This document shows positions 6,799 to 49,372 of a DNA stretch of 64,000 nucleotides, piece after piece. Below the pieces are notes generated by a model. That model searched no databases. It was not told the origin of the DNA and worked only from the letters and a program-made list of their open reading frames with translations. Position 1 is the first letter of the stretch. Each line of letters begins with the position of its first letter. The position numbers and the translations under genes were made by a program. Origin of the DNA: Clostridia bacterium (lineage in GTDB: Bacteria > Bacillota > Clostridia > Oscillospirales > CAG-382); the NCBI GenBank assembly GCA_017429165.1, contig JAFRPL010000014.1:130113-194112 (forward strand), written 5' to 3'.

Positions 6799-7670
6799 TG
6801 GCAAAGATACTGAGAGCTATGACGCGCGACGGCAGCGCGAGGATACTTGCCGAAAATTCCGCCGACATAGTAAACGAGGCGATACGGATACACGATACGT
6901 TCCCGGTCTGCACGGCGGCGCTGGGGCGCACGCTGACGGCTGCTTCTATGCTCGGCTCGCTTTTAGGCGAAGACGAGGACGCGCTGACCGTGAGCTTCCG
7001 CGGCGACGGGCCCGCGGGCAGGATAGTCGTTTCGGCCGACTGGAAAGGCAACGTACGCGGATACGTTCAGAACCCGCACGTGGACATACCGCTCAAGCCC
7101 AACGGCAAACTTGACGTTTCGGGCGCGGTAGGTAAAGGGCAGATGTATATCTTACGCGACGCGGGCGGCAGCGAACCGTACGTGGGCATAGCCGACATAG
7201 TGAGCGGCGAGATAGCCGAAGACATAGCTTCGTACTACGCGAAAAGCGAGCAGATACCCACGCTGTGCTCGCTGGGCGTGCTGGTGGGCACCGGCTGCAA
7301 ATGCCTGTGCGCGGGCGGCGTGCTGATACAGCTGCTGCCGTTCGCCGACGACGCGGTGGCGCAGAGGCTTGAAGAAAACGCTTCACGTCTGCCGGGTGTG
7401 ACCAAACTGCTTTCGGAGCACACGCTCGAAGAGACGCTCGGCATGTTCCTCGAAGGCGTCGAATACGACGTTTTCGATTCGATGGAATGCGCCTATGAGT
7501 GCAAGTGCAGCCGCGCCAAGACCGACGCCGCTTTGCGGGCTTTGGGCAAGGAAGAACTTTTGAAAATGGCGGATTCGGACGAAAAGGCCGAGATCTCGTG
7601 CCAATTCTGCGATAAAAAATACGTATATTCGAGATCCGAGATAAAGAAAATAGCGGAGGGATTAAAATGA
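6798..7670 (+). CDS. hslO: Redox-regulated chaperone Hsp33
   Basis: C-terminal zinc centre CKCSRAK...CQFCDKKY and an Hsp33-like N-terminal region (RAMTRDGSARILA...). AGGAG lies 7 nt upstream. Confidence 0.85.
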   Translation: MAKILRAMTRDGSARILAENSADIVNEAIRIHDTFPVCTAALGRTLTAASMLGSLLGEDEDALTVSFRGDGPAGRIVVSADWKGNVRGYVQNPHVDIPLKPNGKLDVSGAVGKGQMYILRDAGGSEPYVGIADIVSGEIAEDIASYYAKSEQIPTLCSLGVLVGTGCKCLCAGGVLIQLLPFADDAVAQRLEENASRLPGVTKLLSEHTLEETLGMFLEGVEYDVFDSMECAYECKCSRAKTDAALRALGKEELLKMADSDEKAEISCQFCDKKYVYSRSEIKKIAEGLK

Positions 7671-13860: not shown

Positions 13861-13943
13861 GTATTTCGTGCGCGAAGCGCATAACTCATAACGCATAGCT
13901 CTAAGCTCTAAATTTTTCATATTCGAATACGGGTTGGGAGTTT

Positions 13944-13977
13944 AGAACTAAGAACTAAGAACTAAGAACTAATAACT
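13944..13977. repeat. Heptanucleotide tandem repeat (aagaact) x4-5
   Basis: tagaactaagaactaagaactaagaactaataact, read directly. Confidence 0.9.
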
Positions 13978-13987
13978 TCAGAGGCTT

Positions 13988-14093
13988 TTCGCCTTGCGGC
14001 GAAAAGCTGAATTGCTCGCATACGCTCGCAGCTAAAACATTTGCCTTGCGGCGAAAAGCTGAATTGCTCGCATACGCCCGCAGCTAAATTAAA
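13988..14093. repeat. Two tandem copies of a 53-nt unit
   Basis: ttcgccttgcggcgaaaagctgaattgctcgcatacgctcgcagctaaa at 13988 and ttgccttgcggcgaaaagctgaattgctcgcatacgcccgcagctaaa at 14041. The first copy folds as cttttcgcc-TTGC-ggcgaaaag. Confidence 0.9.
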
Positions 14094-14099
14094 TTCGCT

Positions 14100-14186
14100 T
14101 TTAGCTCGGCGCAGCCGTATTTAGCTCGCGTTAGCGAATTTAGCTCGCGTAAGCGAATTTAGCTCGCGTTAGCGAATTTAGCTGCG
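14100..14186. repeat. 19-nt tandem array (tttagctcgcgttagcgaa), giving TTAGC pentamers phased at 9-10 bp
   Basis: TTAGC occurs at 14101, 14121, 14131, 14140, (TAAGC at 14150), 14159, 14169 and 14178. Inverted GCTAA occurs at 14031 and 14083. Confidence 0.9.
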
Positions 14187-14298
14187 ACCGCCGCCGCGCT
14201 GTAACGATTTGTCGCTTTACTTTTGGCGCGATTTGTGGTTTAATGATAACGGTAAACGAGATCCCGGCCGGAAAACGTTACCGAAAGGAGGGCGGCGA

Positions 14299-14751
14299 TT
14301 GGAAACAGGCAGAATAATATCCGAACTGCGTATAAGCGCGGGGCTGACCCAGGAAGAACTTGCCGAACGTCTTTACGTTTCGCGCACGCTGGTGCAGAAA
14401 TGGGAGACCGGCAAACGCAGACCCGGCAAAAGCGATCTGGAATCCGTTGCGGCGATACTCGGCGCCGATCGCGGCGTTTTTTGTGAAAAAGACGACGGGA
14501 TAATGGCCGAGCTTGAGTCGTGCGTTCCGGAAAACTGCGGTATGACCGAAGAAAGCGTGATACCTCTTTTGGAAAACTTTTTGCAGACGCTGCCGCCGAG
14601 AGAACGCAATATCTTTATAAAACGTTATCATTTCCTGCGTTCCGCAAAAGAAATAAGCACGGAAACGGGGATACGCCAGGGACACGTGCGCACCATACTT
14701 TCGCGCACGAGATCCAAACTGAAAGAGTATTTTAAGGAGAATATAAAATGA
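14299..14751 (+). CDS. Chimeric regulator: XRE-family HTH fused to a sigma-70 region-4 domain, with no region 2
   Basis: AAGGAGG lies 7 nt upstream of the TTG at 14299. XRE HTH is ISELRISAGLTQEELAERLYVSRTLVQKWETGKRRP. The region 4-like part is LPPRERNIFIKRYHFLRSAKEISTETGIRQGHVRTILSRTRSKLKEYF. The start codon is uncertain (the ORF is open from 14209). Confidence 0.7.
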   Translation: METGRIISELRISAGLTQEELAERLYVSRTLVQKWETGKRRPGKSDLESVAAILGADRGVFCEKDDGIMAELESCVPENCGMTEESVIPLLENFLQTLPPRERNIFIKRYHFLRSAKEISTETGIRQGHVRTILSRTRSKLKEYFKENIK

Positions 14752-16724
14752 ACGCAAACACTCTTTACGACGCTTTTGCAAAAATAAGCGATTCGCTCAC
14801 CGATACCGCTTACGAAGCGAAAAAACCCGAACGCACCAAAAACTTCAAAACCATCGCGATCGCCGCAGCGGCGCTGGTCGTGGCCGCCGCTGCAATATTC
14901 GCGATCCCGGCGTTCCGCAGCGATCCGAATAACGTTTCCGCCGTCGAAGACACGTCGGAAGTTGATGACAGCAACGTATTATACAGGTCGGAAAACGGCG
15001 AATTCGTCGTGCGCGTCGTCGAGCCGCTGGAAAAGCCAATATGTAGTAATAGTCTGTGGGTGCCGATTTCAGACGGCTTAATGCGCGAAGCCACTGATGT
15101 GGTTTTGGGAACTATAACTAACGTGACTGAAATCTTTTTTGAAACCGAACATAAACCTGACGATTGGTATATCGAAGGTGTCGGGTATGTCACTGATCTT
15201 TCACGATATCGTTCACTAGTAACAGTTAAAATCAAAGATACCATAAATGGCAATCTTTCAGCAGGGGAATCTGTGACTTTTATATTCTACGCTTCTTCTC
15301 GGAACGCCGAGTATACTGCAGGTTACTCGGAAATACTGCCGATTACAGGGGACGAATACGTATTTTATCTGAAAAAGACTGCGGAACTGGATTCCGGCCA
15401 TTTTTACATTCCGATCGCAGATTATTATTATTGCTTGACTGGTCCCTGTTTTGTACCATACGACGAACCGCAACGTCCTGAACTGCTGGCGGTCATAGGA
15501 GCCGAAGAAGGCGCTTGCGGTGAGGAATTTATAGAAGCGCTTGCGAATTATTATGCCGACAGTAACGGAAACGTACTTTACCGTTCCGAAAACGGCGATT
15601 TCGTCGTGCGCGTCGTCGAGCCGCTGGACGTGCCGAAGGTTTATAACTATTTATGGGCGCCCATAACGGACAATATGCTGAATTCTTTTTCGACCGTCAT
15701 AACCGGAACGATAGAAAAGGTGGAAGAAATAGAGATCTCTTACAGCCTTTTTGATCAAGACCTTACCGCTTACTGGTCGCTCCTTACCGTGTCTGCAGAC
15801 GACGTCATAAAAGGAAACGGCGACGTGATCAAGGGCGAGACCGTGAGCGTGCTGTTCGAATTATCCACCCATTCGGCAAATGAAGACAATATTTATCCCC
15901 TGGTAAACGAAAAATACGTTTTCTTCCTTAATAAGACGTCGGAGCTCAAGAACGTTCCGGATTATTCGTCGATCGCCGATTATATGTATGAAATGACCGG
16001 AGATGCGTTTATTCCCCTTGACGAACCTCAAAATCAGCGGCTTTCAGAGATTTTGGGCAGCGAGGATAATTTCGGCGAGAAGTTCGTTGAAGCGCTTGCG
16101 AATTATTATGCCGGCAGTAACGGAGACGTACTTTACCGTTCGGAAGACGGCGATTACACGGTGTGGAAAGTCAATCCCGATAGCCTTTCCGGGGTTAGGT
16201 CAGCCGCTTGCTGGGTGCCGGTAGACGACGAGATGCTTCACAGAGCGAGCGACGTGGTCGTGGGGACGATCAAGGACATTACGGATATATATATCGAGAC
16301 CGGGGATCACGATTATTTAGAAACCCAATACGGCGTCATCGACCTTTCAGAGGTCGATCGTTACAAATCGCTTGTAACCGTGGAAGTGAAAGAAACGATC
16401 AACGGCGATATCGCCGAAGGCGAAACCATCACTTTTGTGTACGAATCGCCTTTGGCGAGCTATCCGAAAAACGTATCGTCAAGCTTATGGGGCGATGAGT
16501 CCGCCATAGTAGGCAGAGATTACGTATTCTTTCTTAAAAAAACTTCCGAAAAGGACTACAAGTTCGATCTGACGCCGATCGCGGCTTACGCATACGGCAT
16601 TATCGGGCCCTGCTTTGTTCCGTACGACGAGCCGCAGGATGCATCCCTGCTGGAGACAATCGGCGCACAAAAAGGCACTTGCGGCGAAGAATTCATTGAA
16701 GCGGTGAAAAAATATTATGAATGA
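14748..16724 (+). CDS. Single-pass membrane protein with three ~190-200-aa internal repeats; it occupies the anti-sigma position
   Basis: ATGA overlap with the upstream gene. The N-terminus has a short cytoplasmic peptide plus the TM AIAAAALVVAAAAIFAIPAF. It contains three copies of NVLYRSENG(E/D)FVV...YVF(Y/F)L(K/N)KT...FIEALANYYA. Confidence 0.8.
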   Translation: MNANTLYDAFAKISDSLTDTAYEAKKPERTKNFKTIAIAAAALVVAAAAIFAIPAFRSDPNNVSAVEDTSEVDDSNVLYRSENGEFVVRVVEPLEKPICSNSLWVPISDGLMREATDVVLGTITNVTEIFFETEHKPDDWYIEGVGYVTDLSRYRSLVTVKIKDTINGNLSAGESVTFIFYASSRNAEYTAGYSEILPITGDEYVFYLKKTAELDSGHFYIPIADYYYCLTGPCFVPYDEPQRPELLAVIGAEEGACGEEFIEALANYYADSNGNVLYRSENGDFVVRVVEPLDVPKVYNYLWAPITDNMLNSFSTVITGTIEKVEEIEISYSLFDQDLTAYWSLLTVSADDVIKGNGDVIKGETVSVLFELSTHSANEDNIYPLVNEKYVFFLNKTSELKNVPDYSSIADYMYEMTGDAFIPLDEPQNQRLSEILGSEDNFGEKFVEALANYYAGSNGDVLYRSEDGDYTVWKVNPDSLSGVRSAACWVPVDDEMLHRASDVVVGTIKDITDIYIETGDHDYLETQYGVIDLSEVDRYKSLVTVEVKETINGDIAEGETITFVYESPLASYPKNVSSSLWGDESAIVGRDYVFFLKKTSEKDYKFDLTPIAAYAYGIIGPCFVPYDEPQDASLLETIGAQKGTCGEEFIEAVKKYYE

Positions 16725-16831
16725 GTACCGGCGCATAAAAGGGTGCGCTTTGTACCTTGACATTTGCAAATTTTCAGATATACTGTAACTGAAAGGCAAA
16801 GAAGTCTGAACGCGATATAAAGGAGATCGTT

Positions 16832-17422
16832 ATGAAAAAGCCGCTATCGCTTGCCATGGTATGCCTGCTGCTCGCCGTTTCCGCTTTTACGTTTATCGCC
16901 TGTGGAACCCGGACCGACGACGGATCCGACGGATCAAATCACGGCAGGCTTGTCGAGATATCTTATGACGCGTCGACCGGCGCTCATTATTATTCCACAA
17001 AAGAATCTATGCAAGAACGACAAAGCAAAATAGTTCAGTTGACGCCGGAACAGTTATCGTTGCCCACGGGCGAACTGGTGGATCTGATCCTGGATTTTCC
17101 GTTTTGGACCGAGTATTTTTCATCCACATCCCCATATGCCAAAACTTATGAAATAATCACAACCGCGTACGAATATAACGGCTTTGCAGAATTAGAAAAG
17201 AGGCCGGATTCCTCAAACGCGATGCTTTGCAGGTTTAAGGAACTGGTAAAAGAGTCGGATTACGGATCGCTTCACGCTTCGTATCTGTATTTCATTCTTT
17301 CCACGCCTGTTTATTATGATCGGTTGACGCCGGAAGAGCTTGCCGAATTCGAGTGCGTTTGCGACGAGTATAATACGGCGCATACTCGGCATGATAATGT
17401 ATCAAATGAAAACGGATCCTGA
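16832..17422 (+). CDS. Hypothetical lipoprotein
   Basis: AAGGAG RBS. Signal peptide with the lipobox FTFIAC|G. I recognise no domain. Confidence 0.65.
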   Translation: MKKPLSLAMVCLLLAVSAFTFIACGTRTDDGSDGSNHGRLVEISYDASTGAHYYSTKESMQERQSKIVQLTPEQLSLPTGELVDLILDFPFWTEYFSSTSPYAKTYEIITTAYEYNGFAELEKRPDSSNAMLCRFKELVKESDYGSLHASYLYFILSTPVYYDRLTPEELAEFECVCDEYNTAHTRHDNVSNENGS

Positions 17423-37755: not shown

Positions 37756-37774
37756 AACCCAAGAGCGCATTAAA

Positions 37775-37868
37775 GCGGTGATTTACGCACCGTGATTCAA
37801 TACTGTTTAATGCCCGGAGGCTTATTTGCCTCCGGGTTTCGTTTTTGCATATATATCAGTTCCGCCTT
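37775..37868 (+). repeat. Copy 1 of a 94-nt direct repeat containing the pckA terminator
   Basis: Identical to 37983-38076 except at 2 positions. Contains the hairpins cggtg-atttacg-caccg and cccggaggc-ttattt-gcctccggg. Confidence 0.9.
37813..37846 (+). terminator. Rho-independent terminator (copy 1)
   Basis: Stem cccggaggc / gcctccggg, then tttcgttttt. Confidence 0.8.
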
Positions 37869-37982
37869 CCCCGAAAATGGTGCTTCGATGAAAAACTCGA
37901 CTGCCGTACAATCGTACGGCGACGCTCGCTTTTCATCGAAAATCTCTCGCTTTACCGCGCTCTTGTCAGCCGCCGTCATAAG

Positions 37983-38076
37983 GCGGTGATTTGCGCACCG
38001 TGATTCAATACTGTTTAATGCCCGGAGGCTTATTTGCCTCCGGGTTTCGTTTTTACATATATATCAGTTCCGCCTT
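37983..38076 (+). repeat. Copy 2 of the 94-nt direct repeat
   Basis: See copy 1. The offset between the copies is 208 nt. Confidence 0.9.
38021..38054 (+). terminator. Rho-independent terminator (copy 2)
   Basis: Same hairpin and T-tail as copy 1. Confidence 0.75.
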
Positions 38077-38085: not shown

Positions 38086-38114
38086 TTGATATTTTATTGA
38101 TTTGATGATATAAT
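38086..38114 (+). promoter_or_regulatory. SigA-type promoter upstream of the ECF sigma gene
   Basis: TTGATA at 38086-38091, a 17-nt spacer, TATAAT at 38109-38114. Confidence 0.6.
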
Positions 38115-38188
38115 TTTTATGAAAAGTGAAACCTTCTCCTTATTTTTTCGTCTTAATAAGTGAAAGCGGCTTTCGAAAGGAACATTTC

Positions 38189-38752
38189 ATGAGCATTCCG
38201 GAATATCTGCCAGACAATGAAATAGTCAAGCTGTTTTACGCGCGCGACGAACGCGCCCTGAGCGAGACCGCCCGCAAATACGGCGCGCTCTTCCGCTCGG
38301 TCGCCAACAATCTGCTGCAAAGCGTTCCCGACGCAGAAGAATGCGAAAACGACGCGTATCTGCGGCTGTGGAACGCCATACCGCCCGCCGAGCCAAAAGA
38401 CCTTGGGGCATACGGCGTGAAGATAGCGCGCAATCTTGCGCTGGACGCGGTAAAAAAGCGCACTGCGCAGAAACGCGGCGGATGCGCGGCGATAGAAGAG
38501 CTCTGCGCGGATTTCGACGACGTCCCCGACACTGCCGCCGACGGGCGCGAGCTCGGGGAACTGCTGGATGAATTCCTGCGCACACAGGAAAAATGCGACC
38601 GCGTGATGTTTGTGCTGCGCTACTTTTACGGCGAGCCGCTCAAAAAGACAGCCGAAAGATGCGGGATCAGCGAAAGCGGAGTCAAGACGCGCCTGTTCCG
38701 CACCCGCCAAAAACTCAAATCCTTTTTAAAGAAGAAGGGAGTAACTGTATGA
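38189..38752 (+). CDS. ECF-type sigma-70 family factor
   Basis: Region 2-like DAEECENDAYLRLWNAIPP...GVKIARNLALDA. Region 4-like CDRVMFVLRYFYGEPLKKTAERCGISESGVKTRLFRTRQKLKSFL. Start at the ATG at 38189. Confidence 0.85.
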   Translation: MSIPEYLPDNEIVKLFYARDERALSETARKYGALFRSVANNLLQSVPDAEECENDAYLRLWNAIPPAEPKDLGAYGVKIARNLALDAVKKRTAQKRGGCAAIEELCADFDDVPDTAADGRELGELLDEFLRTQEKCDRVMFVLRYFYGEPLKKTAERCGISESGVKTRLFRTRQKLKSFLKKKGVTV

Positions 38753-41700
38753 AAAACGAAAAATTCATGCGTTCGGTAGGCGAAATAGGCGACGACCTGC
38801 TGCAGGAAGCCGCCGGATACAAAGCCGAAAGCAAGGCAAAAGCCAATGTCCCGGCGCCGCGCGGCAAACTGTTCCGCCGGGCGGGACTCATCGCCGCCGT
38901 GCTCGCGGTAGTGATAGCCGCCGCGTTCGTGATACCCGCGCTGTTCAGGCAGCCGGATCATGTAAAGATCGAGATCCCGCCCGATAACGGAATCATCTTA
39001 AAAGGCGGCGCCTACAGCACCGACGCGAACGCAAACCTGCCTGAATCGCTCAGAGAAATAGAAGTGCTCGCCAACGGCTCGGGCGAAAAGCTTATGGCGA
39101 CCGATTCCACGCTGGTCGTAAAGACCGCCGCGGAATGCGACACCGAAACGTTTGTCAAATACGTTTCGGTCACCCCCGAACTCCCCATGGCGGTGACCAA
39201 AGTCAGCGCCACCGAATTCCATTTGAAACCGGCGCAGACCGCGTTCGCGCCCAACACGCTTTACCGCGTGACGGTGGGCGATCCGCAAAACCCCGCCGCA
39301 AGCTTTGCGTTCCAGACGGTGAGCGAGCTTGCGATAAAAAACATACTCCCCGGCGCGGGCAGCACCGAAGTTCCCGTGAACACGGGAATAGAAGTCACCT
39401 TCACAGATTCGGTGAAGAACGCGGATTTTTCGGATTATATCACTTTGACGCCCGCGGTCAGCGGCAAATTCATGCTCTACCCCAACGGCAAGACCGTGGC
39501 GTTCATACCCAAAGAGCCGCTGGAATACGATTCGGTCTATACCGTCACCGTTAAAGAAGGGCTCGAATCGATCTCCGGCAAGCCGCTGAATGCCGGCCGC
39601 ACCGCGGTGTTCCGCACGGAGGGTCCGGACGAAGACACGCAGTTCGTAAGCTGGATAACCGCCTCGGCGAACGGTTCGCGCAAGGCGATGTTTACTCCCG
39701 GCGATCCGTATTCGCTCGGAAGCTTCGTGGAATACACCGCGGAAATCTATTACAACGACGTGAGCCGCACGTTTGCCGAGCTTCCCGCCGGTCAGGTCGC
39801 TCTCACCGCGACTTTCTACCGCGCCGTTTCGTGGGATTCCGTAGCGGAAGCCGTTACTCAGCTGCTCAGCAGCGATTTTGCCGCCGATTACGACGAAAAC
39901 GCGCTGCTCGACAAATATTTTGAAAAGGTCGACGAAATAGAGTTCGAGCCCAAAGACGGAGTGTTCAGATACAATTGTTCGTACACGCCCGAAAAAGAAG
40001 GCTTTTACTACACCGTTATTACCGCCCGGAAAAACGGCACAGTCCGCACTTTCCGCGACGTGTTCCAGATCTCCAATCTGCGCCTCGGCGGCACGGCGAT
40101 CGACGGCAAAGCGGTCGTAGTCGTTTCGTACGATAACGGGGCGCGCGTCGCAGGCGCGACCGTAAAAGGCCTGCGCTTCAGCGAAAATGCGTTCTACGAA
40201 AGCGTAAACCGCCCCGAAATGACCGCGTTCGAAATAACGTGCGGCTCCGACGGCACCGCGGTGCTGGAATACGGCGCGGGCAACGCGCTGGCGTTCATCT
40301 ACACCGACGGCGAACGCTCGGCGCTGGCGCTGAAAAGCGTGCCGGGATTCGACGATAACGATTACTATATCAACACGCTTTACACCGACCGCAGCGTGTA
40401 TTTCACCAACGACGCCATCAACGTATGGGGCACGCTTAAAGGCCTTTACGGCGCGGAAGTGCCCGAAGAACTGTATGTCTTCACCGGTTTTTCTTCGGTG
40501 GGGACGCCCGTGACCGTGAGCGAAGACGGTTTCTTCAGCGCGAGCCTGAAAATAGAAAACGTTATGCGCACCTACACCTATGTGCGCGTAGAAGACGCGA
40601 ACGGGATCGTACTCGCCAACACGATGATCAGCGTGACCGAGGAAGAAAAGCCCGTGATCAAAGCGGAAATGAGCTTTGAAAAGCCATATTATTTTTACGG
40701 CGATACGGCGGTCGCCACGATAAGAGTCACGTTCTACGACGGCACGCCCGCCGAAGGTTACGAGGTGAGCGCGCGCTGTTACGAATTCGACGGCGACTAC
40801 GGCAAAGTGACCGACGAAAACGGCTGCGCCACGTTCCGTATAAAGACGGGCAGCGTGAATGCGAACTCGACGAACCCGTGGACTGTCAGCGCTTACGCGT
40901 ATATCAGCGGCGAAGGAGTCGATACGCTGCGCTGCGCGGCGTCGTTCGTGTATTTCCATTCCGATTACGTGCTGGCTTATGAAGGCCGAGTCATAAAGCT
41001 CAACGAGCTCGACCGTTCCAAATGCCCCGAATACGCCGCGGGCAAACCGGTCACCACCAAACCGGGAAACGTCGGAGCGGGATCGCTTGAATACGCCCTT
41101 ATTCAGGTCAAATACAACGTATACACCTATACGGAATACGATATGTATCTCAAACGCAGCGTGGAGCGCACACGCTCCGAACGCATCGAGACCTGCGAAG
41201 AACAGGGCAAACTGTATTTTGAAGACGGCAGGATAGAACTTAAAAAGGTCGATTACGACCCGGAAAAGTACTACTACTATTACAGACTGTACTTCACCGA
41301 CGCGCACGGGCGCTACGAATTCACAGTCCCGGCCCGCGATTACGATGATTCTTATTACACCCGCTATTACACCTATTACGACCGCGCGTATACCGTAGTG
41401 CTGGATAAAGACGCGTACCTTCCGGGCGACACCGTGAACGCCAGGTTCATATACGGTGAAACGAACAACTGCCCCGAACCCGTGCTCGTATTCACCGGCA
41501 CAAGCTATATCAGCCACACGAGCGGCAGCGAAGGCGCGGAACTGTTCACCGAAGAACGGCTTCCCGAAATGCGCGTGACGGCGCTGTTTTTCGACGAAAT
41601 CAGAAAGAGCTGGCGCGCGGCAGGATCGACCGCTTCGTATGATTACGGCAGCGCTGTCGACGGCGAGATAAGCGTCAAGACCGACAAAGACGTCTATAAA

Positions 41701-44016
41701 CCCGGCGACACCGTCACGGTCACCGTGACCGCTCCGCAGCTTGCGGGCGGGAAAGCGCTTATAAGCATTGTGGACGAAGCGTGCTTCGCCTTGGGCGAAA
41801 ACGCGTACAGTCTGCTTAATTACCTCAAATCGAGCGGCTATTTCGCGTCACAGTCTTATATGATCCGTTCTTACAATGCTTACAATGAATATAGGTACCG
41901 CGGTTATATTCAGGGTTATCACACCGGCGGAAGGCTCACTTCGTTTTCCGATATCCCGCTTTCGCGCCTGATCGGCTCGAAACTCGGGGGCAATTCCGAT
42001 TATATATATATCGACGGCAAAATGTATAGGTATGAGTACATGGAAGCAGAAGCGGAAGCGCCCGGAGACGCCGTCAACACGGAAGGCGAAAAATCGTACT
42101 ATGTGCGCGAAAACTTCGCCGACAACCCCGTTTTTGCACAGCTCGAATTCGACGAAAACGGCACGGCGACGCTGGTATTCAAGGTACCGGACAACCTCAC
42201 GACCTGGCGCGTGACCGCGCTGGGCATAAAGAATGCGGAAAAATTCAGCGACATCCGCATTGCGCAGAGCACGGGCGATCCCGTGTGCACGCTGCCGTTC
42301 TTCGTAAAGACCGATATGTGTTCCACCTACGTCAAAGGCGACGACATTGCGCTTTCGGTCCGCTGCTTCGGTACAAAAGCGCAGGGACATGCAAATTATA
42401 CGGCGGTGATATGCGACGCTGAAGGCAGCGAGATAGCGCGCAAAGAGGTTTCCGGCGACACCAAGGCGTTCACCGGAGTCAATTTCGGCAAGCTGGACGC
42501 AGGCGATTACAGTCTCACCGTTTACGCCGACTGCGGCGAATACACCGACGCTTTGAAGAGCACGTTCAGAGTGGTGACTTCCACGCTCGCGGTAGACGCT
42601 GTGGCGACGGTCACCTTGGACGAACTCAAATCCCTTAAAACGCTCGCATACCCCGTGAACGTGGTCGTAAGCGCCGGCGGAAGCGATTCGTTCTATTCCG
42701 GGGTGCTCGGCAGTCTCTATTACTCATACGGCGAACGCGCCGACGCGCTGGCGGCGAAATATGCCGCGGCGGTCATAATGAAAAACGTCTACGGCGGCGA
42801 TTTCGGCATTTCGGATATCGAAAGCAAGTTCGAATCGTTCTGCGGGACGGCCGGCGTCAAGCTTTTGCCTTACGGCGAAGCGGACGTCGAATTGACCGCT
42901 CTCATTGCGGACGTCGCTCCGGAGCTTTTGGCAGGAAAACTCACTGCTGCCGATCTGTTTGCAAACAAGCTTAACCGTAACGTGTTCCAAAGCGACGTGG
43001 AGCTTTGCGCTTCGATATACGGACTCGCCGCGTGCGGCGAACCCGTGCTCGACGTGCTGTACACGGTATCGTCGCAGGCCGGCGACTACAGCGACGAAGC
43101 CAAGTTTTACCTTGCGTGCGGATTTGCCGCAGCGGGCGATTATACCGCCGCGGAAAGCATCTATTCGCAAATAGTCGGCAAACTTGCGGTCGGCGTTGAA
43201 AACGCGATGTACCTCAAAGGCGCCGACGAAGACGCAAAGATCAAGCTCACTTCCCTTGCGCTGGTCGTCGCTTCGCGCATCAGGCGTTCCGACGCGATCA
43301 GATTCGCGCGCTACGCGGTAAGTATCCCGAACACGCACGGCGAAGCCGCGCATCTGGGACTTGCGGCGTTTGCAAAGTATTATCTGCCCGCCGAAAAGCA
43401 GGAACTGCAGAATATAAGCTACACTCTCGCCGACGGCGTTAAGCACGAGTCCGCAATAGGGTTCGGCAAGCAGCTTTGCCTTACGCTTTACAAATCGGAT
43501 CTCGAATCGCTCGTCCTTGAAGGGTGCGAAAACGCCGCGATAACCGTGCGTTACAGCGCGAGCGCCGCCGAGGCCGCGCGCGATTACGGCAAAGGCAGAG
43601 TGAAAGTGCAGAAGACCGTAAGCGGCGACGTGGTGACGATAACCGTTTCGGGTACTTCCAACAGGTACTGGGAATACTTCTCGTTCGACGACGTCATCCC
43701 TTCGGGCGCCCGCCTGCTCTACACTTTCAACCACGGCGACTACGCCAGAGGCAGCAACGCGACCGCGTATATCTACAACCGCGCCGGTCAGCGGATGGAA
43801 GGCCACATTTCGGTATCGGCCCCCGAAAGCTACTTTAAAAACTACCGCAAAGACAACACGGAATTCTGCAAGCAATATTCGTTCTCAGTCACCGTGAGTT
43901 ACCGCATACGCAAGGCGGTCAGCGGCGAGTTCAAGGTGGAACCCGCGGTGGTCGGTTCCGAATACAGCGAAGTATTTGAATTTTCAACAGGCAGTACGAC
44001 CGTTGTTTACGATTGA
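38749..44016 (+). CDS. Giant (1755 aa) single-pass membrane protein with an alpha-2-macroglobulin-like ectodomain; it occupies the anti-sigma position
   Basis: ATGA overlap with the sigma gene. TM is AGLIAAVLAVVIAAAFVIPALF. A bacterial Ig-like domain is present (ILPGAGSTEVPVNTGIEVTF...YTVTVKEGL). The A2M hallmark VPDNLTTWRVTALG is followed by LPFFVKTDM..GDDIALSV. The C-terminal FDDVIPSGARLL completes the pattern. Confidence 0.8.
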   Translation: MKNEKFMRSVGEIGDDLLQEAAGYKAESKAKANVPAPRGKLFRRAGLIAAVLAVVIAAAFVIPALFRQPDHVKIEIPPDNGIILKGGAYSTDANANLPESLREIEVLANGSGEKLMATDSTLVVKTAAECDTETFVKYVSVTPELPMAVTKVSATEFHLKPAQTAFAPNTLYRVTVGDPQNPAASFAFQTVSELAIKNILPGAGSTEVPVNTGIEVTFTDSVKNADFSDYITLTPAVSGKFMLYPNGKTVAFIPKEPLEYDSVYTVTVKEGLESISGKPLNAGRTAVFRTEGPDEDTQFVSWITASANGSRKAMFTPGDPYSLGSFVEYTAEIYYNDVSRTFAELPAGQVALTATFYRAVSWDSVAEAVTQLLSSDFAADYDENALLDKYFEKVDEIEFEPKDGVFRYNCSYTPEKEGFYYTVITARKNGTVRTFRDVFQISNLRLGGTAIDGKAVVVVSYDNGARVAGATVKGLRFSENAFYESVNRPEMTAFEITCGSDGTAVLEYGAGNALAFIYTDGERSALALKSVPGFDDNDYYINTLYTDRSVYFTNDAINVWGTLKGLYGAEVPEELYVFTGFSSVGTPVTVSEDGFFSASLKIENVMRTYTYVRVEDANGIVLANTMISVTEEEKPVIKAEMSFEKPYYFYGDTAVATIRVTFYDGTPAEGYEVSARCYEFDGDYGKVTDENGCATFRIKTGSVNANSTNPWTVSAYAYISGEGVDTLRCAASFVYFHSDYVLAYEGRVIKLNELDRSKCPEYAAGKPVTTKPGNVGAGSLEYALIQVKYNVYTYTEYDMYLKRSVERTRSERIETCEEQGKLYFEDGRIELKKVDYDPEKYYYYYRLYFTDAHGRYEFTVPARDYDDSYYTRYYTYYDRAYTVVLDKDAYLPGDTVNARFIYGETNNCPEPVLVFTGTSYISHTSGSEGAELFTEERLPEMRVTALFFDEIRKSWRAAGSTASYDYGSAVDGEISVKTDKDVYKPGDTVTVTVTAPQLAGGKALISIVDEACFALGENAYSLLNYLKSSGYFASQSYMIRSYNAYNEYRYRGYIQGYHTGGRLTSFSDIPLSRLIGSKLGGNSDYIYIDGKMYRYEYMEAEAEAPGDAVNTEGEKSYYVRENFADNPVFAQLEFDENGTATLVFKVPDNLTTWRVTALGIKNAEKFSDIRIAQSTGDPVCTLPFFVKTDMCSTYVKGDDIALSVRCFGTKAQGHANYTAVICDAEGSEIARKEVSGDTKAFTGVNFGKLDAGDYSLTVYADCGEYTDALKSTFRVVTSTLAVDAVATVTLDELKSLKTLAYPVNVVVSAGGSDSFYSGVLGSLYYSYGERADALAAKYAAAVIMKNVYGGDFGISDIESKFESFCGTAGVKLLPYGEADVELTALIADVAPELLAGKLTAADLFANKLNRNVFQSDVELCASIYGLAACGEPVLDVLYTVSSQAGDYSDEAKFYLACGFAAAGDYTAAESIYSQIVGKLAVGVENAMYLKGADEDAKIKLTSLALVVASRIRRSDAIRFARYAVSIPNTHGEAAHLGLAAFAKYYLPAEKQELQNISYTLADGVKHESAIGFGKQLCLTLYKSDLESLVLEGCENAAITVRYSASAAEAARDYGKGRVKVQKTVSGDVVTITVSGTSNRYWEYFSFDDVIPSGARLLYTFNHGDYARGSNATAYIYNRAGQRMEGHISVSAPESYFKNYRKDNTEFCKQYSFSVTVSYRIRKAVSGEFKVEPAVVGSEYSEVFEFSTGSTTVVYD

Positions 44017-44031: not shown

Positions 44032-44078
44032 AAACTGCGTCCGGGAGCGTTATACTCCCGGACGCAGTTTGTTTCTTT
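44032..44078. terminator. Bidirectional terminator
   Basis: 16-bp stem aaactgcgtccgggag / ctcccggacgcagttt, followed by a T-rich tail. Confidence 0.85.
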
Positions 44079-44083: not shown

Positions 44084-44914
44084 TCAGAACGATTCCATAT
44101 CGCTTACGGCTTTTATTTTTTTCATCACCGTGCAGACGATTTTTTCAATAAGCGAACCGGCGGTGAAATCGGCGGGGACGCAATAGTTAACTCTTCCGGA
44201 TGAAAGCAGGTATTTGGCGGTGTTGTCGCCTTTCTTTTCGTTATACACCGCAATGGATTGTCCGCCGTACGCCTTTACCAGCCGCATGCACGGGACGTCG
44301 GTTATGCCGTCGCCGACGTAGATCATATTGCCGAACGGCACGCGGCGGGCGTTTTCGGGCGTGTATTTGTTGAGAAGAGCGGCGCTTTTGCTGTCGATAT
44401 CGAGCACGCCCTTGTTTATGCGGAACAAAAACTGAGTTTTGGCGGTGTAGTTGACCGCCACCTTTGGCCAGCGGATGGATCCGTTTTCGTCGTACATGAA
44501 TTCGCACGCGTAAATGCGCTTGAAATTGCCCGCGCGGGCGATGGAGGTGCCTTCGATTATCTCTTTTATTCCGGAAGAGACTATGTAATGCTCGACGTTC
44601 ACGCCCGTTTCCGCCGCCGCGGCGTTGATGCGCCCGAACCAGGATTCGACTCCTTCGAAATATTCTATTCCTCGCCCGAGTTCAAAGAATTTGTCGCGCG
44701 TTATGCGTATGTTCTTTTCGCCGCATTTCTGCACCATAAGGAACATATACGCAAGTATGCTGTCCATGTGCTGAGTGTCGGTCAGACGATCCACCTCGCC
44801 CCAGAACTCGTCGGGCGAAAGGCCCAGTTCGGGTATGAAACCGTAATCCTGCATATCGCGCGTGGAAAGCGTTTTGTCAAAATCGTACATCAAGGCAATG
44901 ACGGGTCCGCTCAT
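44084..44914 (-). CDS. HAD-superfamily hydrolase
   Basis: Motif I is YDFDKTLS (DxDxT). Motif IV is YVGDGITDVP. Start at MSGPVIAL. Confidence 0.75.
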   Translation of the reverse strand: MSGPVIALMYDFDKTLSTRDMQDYGFIPELGLSPDEFWGEVDRLTDTQHMDSILAYMFLMVQKCGEKNIRITRDKFFELGRGIEYFEGVESWFGRINAAAAETGVNVEHYIVSSGIKEIIEGTSIARAGNFKRIYACEFMYDENGSIRWPKVAVNYTAKTQFLFRINKGVLDIDSKSAALLNKYTPENARRVPFGNMIYVGDGITDVPCMRLVKAYGGQSIAVYNEKKGDNTAKYLLSSGRVNYCVPADFTAGSLIEKIVCTVMKKIKAVSDMESF

Positions 44915-45014
44915 AACGTTATACCTTTCTTTTTTAAAAAACCAGTTGTGAAACGCGTTTATTCTATTATACCAGAAACCGCGCAAATGTCAATAACGCG
45001 TGCGACGATAGATA

Positions 45015-45759: not shown

Positions 45760-46056
45760 ATGACTATCAACAAACAGAAAAACGAAAACGGGCTTTTGAT
45801 ATCGCTCGAAGGAAGACTGGACACCACCACTTCCCCCGCGCTCGAACAGGAGCTTAAAGCATCGCTCGACGGCGTGGATTCGCTGGTGCTTGATTTTGAA
45901 AAACTCGACTACATATCTTCCGCCGGACTTCGCGTGCTGCTTTCGGCTCAGAAAACGATGAACAAGCAGGGCGAAATGAAGATAAAGAACGTAAACGAAA
46001 CGATACTCGAAATATTCGAAGTCACAGGTTTCAACGACATCCTCACCATAGAATAA
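45760..46056 (+). CDS. STAS-domain anti-sigma-factor antagonist (SpoIIAA/RsbV-like)
   Basis: 98 aa. Contains LDFEKLDYISSAGLRVLL with the conserved phosphorylatable Ser context. Confidence 0.85.
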   Translation: MTINKQKNENGLLISLEGRLDTTTSPALEQELKASLDGVDSLVLDFEKLDYISSAGLRVLLSAQKTMNKQGEMKIKNVNETILEIFEVTGFNDILTIE

Positions 46057-46102
46057 ACTTGTCGCCGGCATTTTGCCGGATCTGACGAAAGGAGCCGCAT
46101 AA

Positions 46103-47740
46103 ATGCAGGGTGACAAGAGCAGCATCTGGAGCAGGTTTCGCTCCGGGATGACTTTCAACATAATAGGCATGATCGTGCTTTTGCTCATAGTATTCGGCAT
46201 AATCGCCGGCGCCGTGGGGCTTGTGAACTTTACCCAGGCGTTCGAAAACGAATACGCCACCACGACCTACCATATGGCGGATACCGCCACCACGCTGATA
46301 AACGGCAGCCATATAGCGGACTATCTGGAAGGCAAGCGCACCATAGAATATATGCAGAGCAAATCGTATCTGGAAGCGTACTGCAAGCGCATAGGCGTTT
46401 CGCTGGTCTACGTCATAATAGTGGATACGAGCGACTACGGCAGGTTCGTTTCGGTATTCAACCACGTCGACAACACCGTGGGCAATACCAGTTACGTCGA
46501 ATGGGAGCTTGGGCACAAGCGCGACACCACCAACGACGAATACCGCGCAAAATATAAAGCGATCTACGAACAGCAATCCGCGTACGAGACCGTCTACCGC
46601 AACAACCCTTCCGACGGCAGCCTTCCGCACATCACCACTATGGTGCCGGTCAAGGATTCCGAAGGTGAAGTGACGGGCATACTCTGCATACAGCGCCCGA
46701 TGAGCGAGCTTATGGGAGCGCGCAGGCCGTACGTGATAGCGGTCGCCTTGGCGACGGTGCTGCTCGCCGCTTTCGTGGCGGTGTTCTACACGTTCTTTAT
46801 GAGACGTCAGTTCGTCAATCCCATTTCGAAAGTCGCTTCGGAAGCGTCGCGTTTTGCGCGCGAAAACACCAAAGGCGAACCGCTCGGCAAAGTCAGCCGC
46901 TTTAAAGAGATATCCGACCTTTCCGAATCCATAGACACCATGGAATCCGACATGGTTAACTATATGCAAGCCATCACCGCTTCGGCCGCCGAAAAAGAGC
47001 GTATCGGCTTTGAGCTTTCGCTCGCCAACACCATTCAGGTGAATTCAATACCCAACGTATTCCCGGCGTTCCCCGAGCGGACCGATTTTGACATTTATGC
47101 TTCCATGACTCCGGCAAAACAGGTGGGCGGCGACTTTTACAATTTCTTCTTCGTGGACGACGATCACCTTGCGATATCCATAGGCGACGTTTCCGGCAAG
47201 GGCATTCCCGCCGCGCTGTTTATGATGGTAACCAACATACTCGTCAGCGACAGGACCCGTATGGGCGGGACGCCGGGCGAGATACTCACTTTTGTCAATC
47301 ATAATATATGCGCGCACAACAAAGCGGATATGTTCGTGACTCTGTGGCTCGGCGTACTGGAGCTTTCCACCGGGACCCTGATCGCCTCAAACGCCGGGCA
47401 CGAATATCCGGTGATAATGCAGCCGGGCGGAAAATACGAAATATTCAAAGACAAACACTGTCTCGCCGTGGGAGCGATGGACAGCATAAAATACAAAGAT
47501 TACACGCTCAAGCTCGAACGCGGCGCCCGTCTCTTCATTTACACCGACGGCGTTCCCGAAACGACGGATCAAGACAACCGGATGTTCGGAATGGAGCGTA
47601 TGGTCGAAACGCTCAACTCCGCAGCGGATGCAGATCCCGAAAACGTGATAACCGGCATGCGCCATGCGGTTGAGCTCTTTGCAAACGGCACCGAACAGTT
47701 CGACGATCTTACGATGCTGTGCATCGAACTCAAAAAGTGA
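46103..47740 (+). CDS. Membrane sensor PP2C (SpoIIE-family) phosphatase with an extracytoplasmic Cache-like domain and HAMP
   Basis: Two TM segments flank a ~180-aa ectodomain. A HAMP-like linker follows. PP2C motifs are GGDFYNFF, IGDVSGKGIPAALFM and YTDGVPE. Confidence 0.85.
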   Translation: MQGDKSSIWSRFRSGMTFNIIGMIVLLLIVFGIIAGAVGLVNFTQAFENEYATTTYHMADTATTLINGSHIADYLEGKRTIEYMQSKSYLEAYCKRIGVSLVYVIIVDTSDYGRFVSVFNHVDNTVGNTSYVEWELGHKRDTTNDEYRAKYKAIYEQQSAYETVYRNNPSDGSLPHITTMVPVKDSEGEVTGILCIQRPMSELMGARRPYVIAVALATVLLAAFVAVFYTFFMRRQFVNPISKVASEASRFARENTKGEPLGKVSRFKEISDLSESIDTMESDMVNYMQAITASAAEKERIGFELSLANTIQVNSIPNVFPAFPERTDFDIYASMTPAKQVGGDFYNFFFVDDDHLAISIGDVSGKGIPAALFMMVTNILVSDRTRMGGTPGEILTFVNHNICAHNKADMFVTLWLGVLELSTGTLIASNAGHEYPVIMQPGGKYEIFKDKHCLAVGAMDSIKYKDYTLKLERGARLFIYTDGVPETTDQDNRMFGMERMVETLNSAADADPENVITGMRHAVELFANGTEQFDDLTMLCIELKK

Positions 47741-47770
47741 TATATTTCCTTATTGAACACGAGGTCCTTT

Positions 47771-49372
47771 ATGGCAGACAACAATAAAAACACGGTCGTT
47801 TACAGGCTTTGCGGAAAGATCGATTCCGGCAACGCGCCGCAGATCGAACAGGAGATCTTCACCGCGCTTGCCGGCAGGGGCGACGTATTGCCCGTACTGG
47901 ATGCCGAAGCGCTCGAATATATTTCGAGCGCGGGGCTGCGGATAATCCTGCGGCTGAAAAAGTCATGCGGCGACGTAAAAATCACAAACGCGAATTCCGA
48001 TATATACGAAATACTGGAAATGACCGGTTTTACCGAGATAATGCAGGTCGAAAAAGCGTACCGCAAAGTGTCGGTCGAAGGCTGCGATGTCGTCGGCGAG
48101 GGTCAGAACGGCAAAGTCTACCGCGTGGACCGCGACAACGTGGTGAAGGTGTATAAAAACGCCGACGCGCTGGAAGACATTAAGCACGAACGCGAAATGG
48201 CAAAACTGGCGCTGATACTGGGCATCCCCACCGCGATTTCGTACGACGTGGTCAAAGTGGGCGAAAGCTACGGTTCGATGTTTGAGCTTCTGGACGCGAG
48301 ATCTTTTTCAAACATACTCGCAAAGGAACCCGAACGGATAGACGAATGCGTATACGAATACGTGAAGATATTAAAGAAACTCCATTCCACGCACGTGCCC
48401 GAAGGCAAACTCCCCCGCTTAAAGGAACGCGTGGTCAAGGCGGCTTCGTATACTAAGGATCAGCTTCCGGAGGGCCTGGGCGACAAGCTTATGCGGATGA
48501 TAGAGGCGATACCCGAGACCGATACCCTGATCCACGGCGACTGCCACACCAAGAATATAGTGATGACGGGCGAAGAAGTCATGCTTATAGACATGGACAC
48601 GCTTTCGGTTGGCCACCCGATATTTGAATTTATGCGAATGTACAATTCGTATATAGGGTATTCGGAATACGACCCACAAGTGCTGGAAGATTTTCAGGGC
48701 TACCCCGCCGAGACGGCGCGCGTTTTCTGGAAAAAAACGCTGTGCGCGTATTTCGGCACGGATGACGAAGATGTGATAAATTCCATAGAAGAAAAGATCC
48801 GCTGCGTTTCGTACGCGTATCTTATCGACTGGTCCCGCCGTCACAAAGCGGCGGAAACCGAGCGCGGCCGTCTTACGTGCGAGCTTTGGAAAAAGCGCAT
48901 TACGGAACTGATACCGCGTCTGGATTCGCTCGACTTTGAAGTGAACGAAGCGACGCGAGACGATCCGAACGAGCTTACGCTGGAAGCCGAAAAAGACAAT
49001 CTGACCCGCGTGCTTGAATTCTTGGACCGGCGGCTTGAAAGCTGCGATTTGCCGCCCAAGGCGCAGATGCAGTTAGACCTTGCGGTGGAAGAGATATTCA
49101 TAAACATAGCGAGCTATGCATATTCCCCCAACAAAGGAAAAGCGACCGTCCGCGTGGAAGTCACGGGCGACCCCGTGACCGTGACGATAACGTTCATAGA
49201 CCGCGGCGTTCCTTACGACCCGCTCAAAAAGACCGATCCCGACGTGACGCTTTCGGCGGACGACCGCGAAATAGGCGGGCTCGGGATATTCCTCGCCAAA
49301 AAGATAATGGACGATATATCTTACGAATACAAAAACGGACAGAATATATTGCGGCTCAAAAAAAAGATTTGA
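47771..49372 (+). CDS. Triple fusion: STAS domain, APH/protein-kinase-like phosphotransferase domain, and RsbW/SpoIIAB-like HATPase domain
   Basis: STAS part: LDAEALEYISSAGLRIIL. Kinase-like part: GEGQNGKVYRV..VKVYK, HGDCHTKNIVM, LIDMDT. HATPase part: N box EEIFINIASYAY, G1 DRGVPYDP, G2 GGLGIFLAKK. Confidence 0.85.
   Translation: MADNNKNTVVYRLCGKIDSGNAPQIEQEIFTALAGRGDVLPVLDAEALEYISSAGLRIILRLKKSCGDVKITNANSDIYEILEMTGFTEIMQVEKAYRKVSVEGCDVVGEGQNGKVYRVDRDNVVKVYKNADALEDIKHEREMAKLALILGIPTAISYDVVKVGESYGSMFELLDARSFSNILAKEPERIDECVYEYVKILKKLHSTHVPEGKLPRLKERVVKAASYTKDQLPEGLGDKLMRMIEAIPETDTLIHGDCHTKNIVMTGEEVMLIDMDTLSVGHPIFEFMRMYNSYIGYSEYDPQVLEDFQGYPAETARVFWKKTLCAYFGTDDEDVINSIEEKIRCVSYAYLIDWSRRHKAAETERGRLTCELWKKRITELIPRLDSLDFEVNEATRDDPNELTLEAEKDNLTRVLEFLDRRLESCDLPPKAQMQLDLAVEEIFINIASYAYSPNKGKATVRVEVTGDPVTVTITFIDRGVPYDPLKKTDPDVTLSADDREIGGLGIFLAKKIMDDISYEYKNGQNILRLKKKI

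Follow-up and report, generated by a model that had tools for sequence, protein, structure and literature searches.

An ECF sigma factor gene overlapping the gene of a membrane-anchored alpha-2-macroglobulin-like protein in a Clostridia bacterium

In a 64-kb stretch of DNA from a gut or rumen Clostridia bacterium (contig JAFRPL010000014.1, positions 130,113 to 194,112; the whole 64,000 nt are called the window below), the gene of a sigma factor of the extracytoplasmic function (ECF) type is coupled to that of a 1755-aa membrane-anchored protein of the alpha-2-macroglobulin (A2M) family, which stands in the position of an anti-sigma factor. A preliminary description of the window, made from its letters alone, had proposed this pairing, and Pfam, Foldseek and the family of related gene cassettes agree on it. 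The modules are known ones in an undescribed, recurrent combination: no paper in the literature searched links macroglobulins to anti-sigma factors, co-mentions being incidental, and a large ECF reclassification does not mention macroglobulin partners, so that the earlier statement that no A2M-like trap was known in the anti-sigma position holds for this literature. We propose that the two genes form an ECF sigma/anti-sigma operon that regulates itself. Its anti-sigma factor would be a membrane-anchored thioester-less A2M, and protease attack would free the sigma. In our judgement this reading is evenly poised between right and wrong.

Results

Gene pair and membrane topology

The two-gene unit consists of the sigma gene (38189..38752; ATG at 38189, 187 aa) and the frame of the giant protein (38749..44016, 1755 aa); all features given here are on the + strand unless noted otherwise. 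As the preliminary description had stated, the two genes overlap by ATGA (38749..38752), which combines the start codon of the giant gene with the stop codon of the sigma gene; the open reading frame (ORF) table and the sequence of the junction agree on this. The giant gene has a GGGAG ribosome-binding site ~9 nt before its ATG, within the 3' end of the sigma gene. In Pfam, the sigma protein matched Sigma70_r2 (residues 29-92), r4_2 (residues 138-176) and Sigma70_ECF, and in NCBIfam it matched TIGR02937 (78.7 bits vs a cut-off of 42.9), with no equivalog-level match. It contains regions 2 and 4 alone and is 187 aa long, where about 170-200 aa is expected, indicating that it is an ECF (group 4) sigma factor.

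According to the predicted structure of residues 1-720, residues 1-41 of the giant protein are cytoplasmic, residues 42-65 (38872..38943) form a transmembrane (TM) helix and the following ~1690 aa form the ectodomain. Thus, the single TM helix and the ~1690-aa ectodomain described earlier were recovered, while the ~30 cytoplasmic residues had to be extended to 41. The TM helix is Ala-rich with a conserved Pro near its outer end, and a TM segment was found in all homologs. The basic cluster RGKLFRR precedes the helix on its N-terminal side, which indicates that the protein is oriented N-in. The giant gene therefore shows the layout of a single-pass anti-sigma factor, i.e., a gene directly 3' of the sigma gene and predicted to be co-transcribed with it, whose product has a cytoplasmic N-terminus and a single N-in TM helix. 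A juxtamembrane linker follows the helix (residues about 66-95, 38944..39033); it is disordered in the model, with predicted local distance difference test (pLDDT) values <50 for residues 62-93, and in the alignment its conservation is 0.27 and its length ranges from 26 to 83 aa. Both this disordered linker and the Ala-rich helix with its conserved Pro are features permissive for site-1/site-2 proteolysis.

A2M-family identity of the giant protein

The giant protein was assigned from its ORF, Pfam, AlphaFold models and Foldseek. Three Pfam domains, A2M_BRD, A2M and bMG10, were found above their curated cut-offs and in the canonical order. Specifically, the structured part of the bait-region domain (A2M_BRD, PF07703; hereafter BRD) covers residues 883-1015 (41395..41793; 27.0 bits vs 22.7) and aligns with the matching part of Salmonella A2M up to the VDEACFALG motif, which corresponds to VDSGVLNIT in the Salmonella protein. 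The A2M family domain (PF00207) covers residues 1132-1207 (42142..42369; 32.0 bits vs a cut-off of 21) and includes PDNLTTWR, and the C-terminal bacterial macroglobulin (MG) domain 10 (bMG10, PF17973) covers residues 1620-1739 (43606..43965; 26.3 bits vs 26.2) and includes DVIPSGAR. The preliminary description had claimed A2M-family hallmarks in the correct order; the domain order confirms this, and the peptides that it quoted fall within the A2M and bMG10 domains. One of them, VPDNLTTWRV (residues 1146-1155, in the A2M domain), has P1147, D1148, N1149, T1151, W1153 and R1154 invariant in 15 homologs, and the other, FDDVIPSGARLL (at about residues 1646-1657, in bMG10), has D1648, P1651 and G1653 invariant in 15 homologs. 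In the N-terminal part, beta-sandwich domains span about residue 100 to 720 in the model of residues 1-720, and this run contains a Big_5 Ig-like domain (residues 194-290, 39328..39618; Pfam, 52.8 bits).

Profile and fold searches gave the same picture. A profile built from 28 homologs found Salmonella A2M (3.2e-35) and ECAM of E. coli (1.7e-33), the two matched stretches together spanning almost the full chain. Residues 556-1755 were modelled with AlphaFold2 (mean pLDDT 79.8, predicted template modelling score 0.69) and compared with the PDB by Foldseek, and the top matches were ECAM (5a42, 8e-42), with which a comparison had been suggested, and Salmonella A2M (4u48, 1.7e-40), followed by complement C4, A2ML1, A2M, TEP1, C5 and CD109. 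In this model, a helical domain resembling the thioester-containing domain (TED) of A2Ms (residues 1314-1544, 42688..43380; model residues 759-989) lies between beta strands (model residues 697-754 and 999-1049), as in A2M and C3, and a final beta-sandwich follows; the bMG10 region is matched by the C-terminal part of YfhM (4ziu). When the sequence of the giant protein alone was searched against PDB sequences with phmmer, nothing was returned at E <= 1, indicating that the A2M kinship is visible through the family profile and the fold search only. Taken together, the giant protein is a true A2M-family member.

Bait-like segment and thioester-equivalent site

A disordered, hypervariable segment rich in Tyr, Ser, Gly and Arg was found at residues 1019-1116 (41803..42096) in the model and the alignment. 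It lies between VDEACFALG and PDNLTTWR, i.e., between the BRD and the A2M domain, which is the location of the bait, and a bait role is predicted for it. Its pLDDT is 21-33 over residues about 1028-1113, the sole long low-confidence stretch in the model of residues 556-1755. It is also the least conserved part of the ectodomain (0.29 vs 0.47-0.59 elsewhere in the ectodomain), and its length ranges from 49 to 108 aa, whereas the flanking domains vary by 1-3 aa.

On the other hand, the thioester is missing. The thioester-equivalent site identified by alignment (residues 1322-1332, LYYSYGERADA, 42712..42744) contains neither Cys nor Gln: the thioester columns read YPYECTEQ in the outgroup P0028 and YYS--YGERAD in the query, and the 26 other homologs also lack Cys and Gln, so that the CXEQ motif is missing in 27/28 family members. 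R1330 and D1332 are conserved at this site (R-x-D). Note that the CEEQ at residue 816 was examined as a possible thioester and dismissed as a chance match, since it is not conserved and sits in an MG domain rather than in the TED. Because CXEQ is absent while the bait-like segment is kept, the giant protein is a thioester-less A2M and of type II as published.

Cytoplasmic peptide and the sigma cassette family

Residues 7-22 of the giant protein (38767..38814) form a conserved cytoplasmic peptide, MRSVGEIGDDLLQEAA, a putative sigma-binding (anti-sigma) element recognised from a motif shared by partner proteins. The motif, phi-x-x-phi-G-x-phi-D-(D/E)-x-phi-phi-x-E-A, was present in 32 non-redundant partners of the sigma clade, and the peptide was modelled as two short helices (residues 4-10 and 15-22) with low pLDDT. 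Co-occurrence of the sigma clade with A2M-like partners, proposed earlier as a check, was found: all 14 A2M homologs that bear the motif (the window, L087, P0003-P0010, L008, L011, L012 and L022) have an upstream sigma gene at a 4-nt overlap, as against 0/15 close relatives with a lipobox or a plain signal anchor, although these counts come mostly from one clade and are not phylogenetically independent events.

The window sigma is 40-53% identical to the sigmas upstream of A2M homologs. When metagenomes were scanned with the class-1 sigma alignment, at least 571 relatives were obtained, many of them from human-gut, rumen and termite-gut samples, and the make-up of the cassette was judged on 80 fetched loci among them. 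In ~76 of these 80 loci, the next gene overlaps the sigma gene by 4 nt and encodes the peptide, a basic linker, one TM helix and an ectodomain, and the size of the ectodomain runs from nil (68-77-aa proteins) up to 763 aa. A2M is a rare payload, as only the 95%-identical ortholog L087 was A2M-like among the fetched sigma-clade cassettes. Other payloads were a beta-propeller, an Ig-like domain and PepSY repeats accompanied by the RsgI-like central anti-sigma domain PF23750, and several had no Pfam match; in NCBIfam, neither the giant protein nor the other cassette partners received a name. The cassette is therefore generic, with one sigma clade paired with many unrelated ectodomains. Since the same type of peptide precedes many unrelated ectodomains next to this sigma clade, the peptide is a portable module specific to the clade, and since some partners consist of the peptide and a TM helix alone, an anti-sigma role would be its most economical reading.

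Some further observations were made on cassette partners. The minimal class-1 partners in L114, L115, L118 and L139 are 68-77 aa long, with the peptide, one TM helix and essentially no ectodomain. Their genes begin at the sigma stop codon, and at least L114, L115 and L118 have JGI 'Ga' metagenome contig names. A common human-gut variant (L131, L132, L140, L146, L148, L162, L166 and similar loci) has a partner of ~580-611 aa, in which PF23750 is followed by three PepSY domains. Near-identical copies of this PepSY/PF23750 partner often differ in length (148-611 aa), and these differences suggest frameshifts or assembly errors.

The window contains another ATGA-overlapping pair (14209-14751 and 14748-16724), and the preliminary description had claimed that the N-terminal motif of the giant protein is the same as that of the 14748 partner. 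This was not borne out, as BLASTP with the N-terminal 81 aa gave no alignment at E <= 100, and the likeness had been drawn by eye. The 14209 protein has an XRE-type helix-turn-helix (residues 37-86) and sigma region 4 (residues 125-173), lacks region 2 and is not a complete ECF sigma. In its partner of 658 aa, a short N-terminal peptide and one TM helix are accompanied by three tandem ~190-aa repeats with no Pfam match; a weak DUF4179 match lies across the TM region. In the 14209/14748 pair, the regulator is an unusual 'half-sigma', and its partner is a membrane protein.

Relatives of the giant protein and repeated coupling to sigma genes

A large protein database yielded 28 relatives of the giant protein, all derived from metagenomes or metagenome-assembled genomes (MAGs). 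Their N-termini are of three kinds: a cytoplasmic peptide with a TM helix (P0001-P0010), a lipoprotein signal peptide (P0011-P0015) and a plain signal anchor. Conservation of the sigma/A2M pair outside this genome was verified, as the pair is retained down to 32-37% identity, each time with the 4-nt overlap. One homologous locus is syntenic with the window (pckA-sigma-A2M-HAD), and the rest have unrelated flanks. Species-representative genomes were also scanned and yielded at least 495 relatives, most of them in Clostridia/Bacillota MAGs (rumen, gut and digesters) and the remainder in Chloroflexota and candidate phyla radiation (CPR) bacteria. Most of the monoderm A2M-like relatives are lipoproteins or signal-anchored proteins without a sigma gene, and the uncoupled lipoprotein relatives share the architecture of the giant protein. 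Bacteria without an outer membrane thus commonly encode A2M-like proteins, which are not rare in Firmicutes; the bacterial A2Ms named in the preliminary description were periplasmic lipoproteins of diderm bacteria.

Among 79 genome loci, of which ~70 have enough upstream sequence to judge, 12 are coupled to a sigma gene. A second coupled class (L027, L030, L057, L068 and L073; Oscillospiraceae/Butyricicoccaceae) has a different ECF sigma and a different cytoplasmic peptide (M.KL.DL..IVD..L..V.MTEEQK..VRRR), and other ECF sigmas are coupled to A2M-like genes in L079 (Clostridiaceae) and L071 (CPR, Ca. Doudnabacteria). The sigmas are 20-25% identical between classes and 41-70% identical within a class. 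Note that sigma classes 2 and 3 were missed by phmmer from the window sigma alone and were found by an iterative multi-seed search of all loci. In a neighbour-joining tree of the ectodomains alone, the query class forms one clade, the second class is separate and distant, and L071 and L079 are isolated. Two sigma-less members, L009 (with a lipobox) and L010, are nested in the query-class clade, and we read them as cases of sigma gene loss. Because the ectodomain tree separates the sigma classes, A2M-ECF sigma coupling must have arisen at least three times, with unrelated sigmas and cytoplasmic peptides.

Several related loci have features of their own. In L012 (JAFYHA010000043.1, about 2036-7309), the A2M-like gene is split, with a tblastn match from 2051 and the longest open frame from 3098, and it is either a pseudogene or an MAG assembly error. 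In L008, the upstream sigma (1405-1986) matches weakly, mainly over region 4 (E 3.5e-6), and the sigma gene may be decaying. In L006/L007 (10851-11726), the uncoupled, signal-anchored P0016 overlaps a downstream Memo-like gene (PF01875) by 4 nt, a different conserved partner for a monoderm A2M-like protein. In L003 and L004 (4001-5872; two MAGs), the lipoprotein-type P0013 and P0015 lie directly 3' of FtsW/RodA/SpoVE-family, PqqD-like and small uncharacterised genes, a context that might faintly echo the linkage of Gram-negative type I A2Ms to cell-wall synthesis (pbp1C). The 184-kb contig L001 carries P0004, and genes for a dockerin protein (11408-12064) and a large glycoside-hydrolase-related protein (13875-17364) come after its sigma-A2M pair, which points to a probable cellulosome-producing Clostridial host.

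Predicted promoters

A predicted ECF-type promoter, GAAAC-N16 (T-rich)-CGTCTT, lies at 38128..38154, 35-61 nt before the sigma start codon. Its AAC-containing -35 and CGT-containing -10 elements before the factor's own gene are, at the sequence level, those expected of an ECF sigma. GAAAC-N16-CGTCTT has a single match in the window, where 0.2 would be expected by chance, and the motif was found at the equivalent position in the orthologous loci L087, L167, L022, L001, L169 and L002. In the sigma clade, where 62 unique upstream regions were compared, 10 contain the strict form (vs 0.5% background), 21 the relaxed form (vs 1.3%) and 24 the extended -10 form (vs 1.8%), a 20- to 30-fold enrichment upstream of the sigma genes. 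The promoter of the whole clade would thus be partly defined, the strict pattern occurring in 10/62 and the relaxed forms reaching 34-39%. Since the motif is unique in the window, kept in orthologs and enriched upstream of the sigma clade, these results support a predicted autoregulation of the operon by its own ECF-type promoter. Just 5' of this promoter, TTGATA-17-TATAAT with a TG extension (38086..38114) resembles a housekeeping (sigma-70 type) promoter, a call made from its consensus match alone (11/12 positions).

Downstream of the -10 CGTC (e.g., window 38150-38172), many class-1 loci have the element (T/A)ATA(A/G)GTGAA(A)G, examples being CGTCTTAATAAGTGAAAG in the window and GTCTATATAGGTGAAAGG in gut loci. 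This element may be a transcription start region or a conserved 5' leader element.

Operon limits and neighbouring genes

An intrinsic terminator-like hairpin with a 16-17 bp stem (44032..44070; bidirectional, assigned to neither strand) closes the two-gene operon, and two identical terminator hairpins lie 5' of the promoters. The gene upstream is pckA, and a HAD hydrolase gene (44084-44986) lies downstream on the opposite strand, convergent with the giant gene. Since terminators bracket the pair and the flanks are pckA and the convergent HAD hydrolase gene, the operon consists of the sigma and giant genes only.

The two upstream hairpins have a particular setting. Between pckA and the sigma gene there is a 98-nt direct repeat (window 37771-37868 and 37979-38076; 97% identical, 208 nt apart), each copy of which holds one terminator-like hairpin, GCCCGGAGGC-TTATTT-GCCTCCGGGT, plus a T-run; this repeat is either a local duplication or a small repeated element. 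Just downstream, the + strand encodes a partner-switching module (window 45760-49372): a STAS protein of 98 aa, a membrane-associated SpoIIE/PP2C phosphatase of 545 aa, and a protein of 539 aa in which STAS, an APH-type kinase fold and a HATPase_c_2 anti-sigma-type kinase are fused.

Discussion

Comparison with known systems

Bacterial A2Ms have been divided into two types. MagD of Pseudomonas aeruginosa, a type II A2M without thioester, traps protease non-covalently after bait cleavage; it is a periplasmic protein of a Gram-negative bacterium, held by MagB at the inner membrane and encoded in the six-gene magABCDEF operon (PMC5764988). Like MagD and E. coli YfaS, the giant protein has a large multi-MG A2M architecture with a bait region and without CXEQ, and it would be located on the outer face of the cytoplasmic membrane. 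Unlike MagD, it has its own N-terminal TM anchor, it comes from monoderm Clostridia, and its gene is in a two-gene operon with an ECF sigma. No mag-like genes adjoin the pair in the window or in the related loci inspected, and membership in a mag operon was rejected because such genes are missing and the two-gene operon is bracketed by terminators. In type I A2Ms, a CLEQ thioester and an N-terminal lipobox are present, and pbp1C is a neighbouring gene (PMC4498604). Type I proteins (ECAM/YfhM and Salmonella A2M; PDB 5a42, 4u48, 4ziq and 4rtd) gave the best structural and profile matches, and the giant protein shares with them the domain order (MG, BRD, A2M domain, TED and C-terminal MG10) and the size (about 1650-1750 aa). 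However, type I membership was rejected, since the giant protein lacks the thioester and the lipobox, its locus has no pbp1C neighbour (the neighbours being pckA and the HAD hydrolase gene) and its relatives are in Clostridia MAGs. In lacking the thioester, it resembles type II (MagD/YfaS) rather than ECAM. Gram-positive pilus thioester-domain adhesins are single TED domains with a Cys-Gln bond and do not have an A2M architecture; an identity as such an adhesin was therefore rejected.

With regard to signalling, the closest functional precedent, by analogy, would be the RsiV-sigmaV system of Bacillus subtilis, Clostridioides difficile and Enterococcus, in which the anti-sigma factor is reported to be a lysozyme receptor (PMC4183432, PMC5014341, PMC9044953). 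RsiV also has the single-pass layout of a Firmicute anti-sigma factor, and its ectodomain engages an attacking host enzyme, leading to intramembrane proteolysis and to sigma-induced resistance to that enzyme. Unlike the giant protein, RsiV has a DUF3298/DUF4163-type ectodomain and a classical cytoplasmic anti-sigma domain, with no sequence relationship between the two, and its trigger is binding that exposes a signal-peptidase site rather than the bait cleavage proposed here. The closest architectural precedent would be the RsgI family. In the RsgI-sigmaI systems of Clostridium thermocellum and Bacillus, RseP is reported to cut within the TM helix (PMC12203970, PMC10328401). Like the cassettes described here, RsgI is a modular Clostridia family with a short cytoplasmic anti-sigma element, one TM helix and interchangeable extracellular sensor domains, and one alternative partner type of our sigma clade carries the RsgI-like central domain PF23750. 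Unlike the SigI/RsgI system, the window sigma is a canonical ECF sigma (regions 2 and 4), the cytoplasmic element is of ~20 residues rather than an RsgI N-terminal domain (RsgI_N) and the A2M partner lacks the autoproteolytic RsgI_M domain; SigI/RsgI membership was rejected on these grounds. Short (class II-like) anti-sigma domains are found in CnrY and NepR. They are analogous in that a very short helical peptide, not a four-helix class I domain, would hold the ECF sigma, and they have no sequence similarity to the peptide.

Proposed mechanism

In the resting state, the cytoplasmic tail of the giant protein would keep the sigma factor at the membrane, and the gene overlap with its internal ribosome-binding site would favour coupled production of the two proteins. 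Foreign proteases of host, dietary or microbial origin in the gut or rumen would cut the exposed ectodomain at the bait and/or the juxtamembrane linker, after which the cut ectodomain would collapse or be shed. The remaining stub would then become a substrate of intramembrane (site-2) proteolysis, as for RsiV, RsiW, RsiP, RsgI and RseA, and the sigma factor would be freed. The freed sigma would transcribe its own operon and so refill the trap, and it might also transcribe genes elsewhere in the genome. In this way, the pair could serve both as a protease shield on the outer face of the membrane in a bacterium that has no outer membrane and as a sensor of the consumption of that shield. Protease-triggered sigma release by the giant protein is what we infer. 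More tentatively, and with rather more doubt than belief, we suggest that the bait-and-collapse mechanism of A2M may have been turned into a protease-activated transmembrane receptor that refills its own trap, and that monoderm bacteria, namely Clostridia and a CPR lineage, invented this independently three times or more, with unrelated sigmas and tether peptides.

Several points weigh against this reading. A bait cut at about residue 1030-1110 would leave ~950 extracellular residues on the membrane stub, which far exceeds known site-2 protease substrates in size; the mechanism therefore needs an extra step, either a juxtamembrane cut or breakdown of the N-terminal half after its collapse, and we regard this stub geometry as the main weakness of the mechanism. 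No curated anti-sigma domain (zf-HC2, RskA, RsgI_N, DUF4179 and others) was found in residues 1-81 by Pfam at E <= 10, and at the same threshold the N-termini of the other coupled classes contain no anti-sigma Pfam domain. Further targets of the ECF-type promoter besides its own operon were not found in the 64-kb window, and the 14/14 and 0/15 counts carry the dependence on one clade noted above. The global TM-scores of the Foldseek matches were low (0.2-0.46, the best being trypsin-activated ECAM, 4ziq); we attribute this to the ~ten-domain protein being flexible or differently arranged, and take the E-values as decisive. Finally, there are many other ectodomains in the cassette family, so that the coupling could reflect a general regulation of surface proteins.

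Alternative explanations

The variety of ectodomains also bears on the nature of the signal. The pair may be a sigma/anti-sigma system whose ectodomain senses a cue other than protease, such as a polysaccharide, the cell-wall state or a host surface molecule, the A2M scaffold having been exapted as a binding platform in the manner of the carbohydrate-binding modules in RsgI. The many unrelated ectodomains used by the sigma clade (PepSY with RsgI_M, beta-propeller, Ig-like and unassigned) suggest such a general sensor slot. Moreover, the thioester is lost with a conserved R-x-D in its place, dockerin and glycoside-hydrolase genes neighbour related loci, and Ig-like Big_5 and MG domains, as are typical of adhesins, make up the N-terminal third. 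Nevertheless, we consider this explanation unlikely, as the whole A2M architecture is kept, including a bait-like segment that is disordered, hypervariable and of varying length and that sits at the canonical position, the uncoupled relatives keep the same architecture as lipoproteins, and MagD still traps protease without a thioester (PMC5764988).

The lipoprotein relatives are at the same time in line with a system that uses no external signal at all, since most relatives are plain lipoproteins that need no signalling. Here, the tail would give stoichiometric negative feedback and the protein would be a pure effector (shield) whose turnover sets expression. The overlap and coupled translation favour 1:1 production, no target of the ECF-type promoter other than the operon itself can be detected in the window, and a housekeeping promoter-like site is also present upstream. 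However, a closed loop in which each sigma is made alongside its inhibitor would need a release step to leave the off state, regulated proteolysis releases all single-pass Firmicute anti-sigmas studied (RsiV, RsiW, RsiP and RsgI), and independent recruitment by at least three sigma types suggests that the ectodomain supplies an input. We regard this kind of dosage control as quite unlikely. It is highly improbable, in our view, that the giant protein is not an anti-sigma factor and is merely encoded by a sigma-regulated gene, with the peptide serving membrane targeting, insertion or sorting of large surface proteins. Such a role would accord with the peptide matching no known anti-sigma domain and with N-terminal signal-anchor regions often being lineage-specific, but the peptide was found only beside this sigma clade, being replaced by a lipobox or a plain anchor where the sigma gene is absent. 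Partners of 68-77 aa that consist of the peptide and a TM helix alone fit an anti-sigma factor, not cargo, and the other A2M-coupled sigma classes carry different cytoplasmic peptides, as expected of cognate sigma-binding elements.

Biological significance

To date, bacterial A2Ms have been described as periplasmic Gram-negative proteins only (PMC5764988, PMC4498604), i.e., as protease traps tied to PBP1c or the mag operon, with a largely inferred role. The present analysis shows that bacteria lacking an outer membrane have members of the A2M family widely, exposed on the cell surface, and that A2M-like proteins have been wired repeatedly to ECF sigma factors. For this wiring, they use a large uncharacterised family of sigma/tether-peptide cassettes, which abounds in Clostridia of the human gut, the rumen and the termite gut. 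If the proposed protease sensing is true, it would be the first signalling function for any bacterial A2M-family protein, and the promoter would offer a direct, testable read-out of A2M activation. Gut commensals could then detect host or competitor proteases in this way, and the system could provide a modular protease biosensor for engineering. Even if the protease model is wrong, the short cytoplasmic peptide would be a new, putative minimal anti-sigma element worth structural study.

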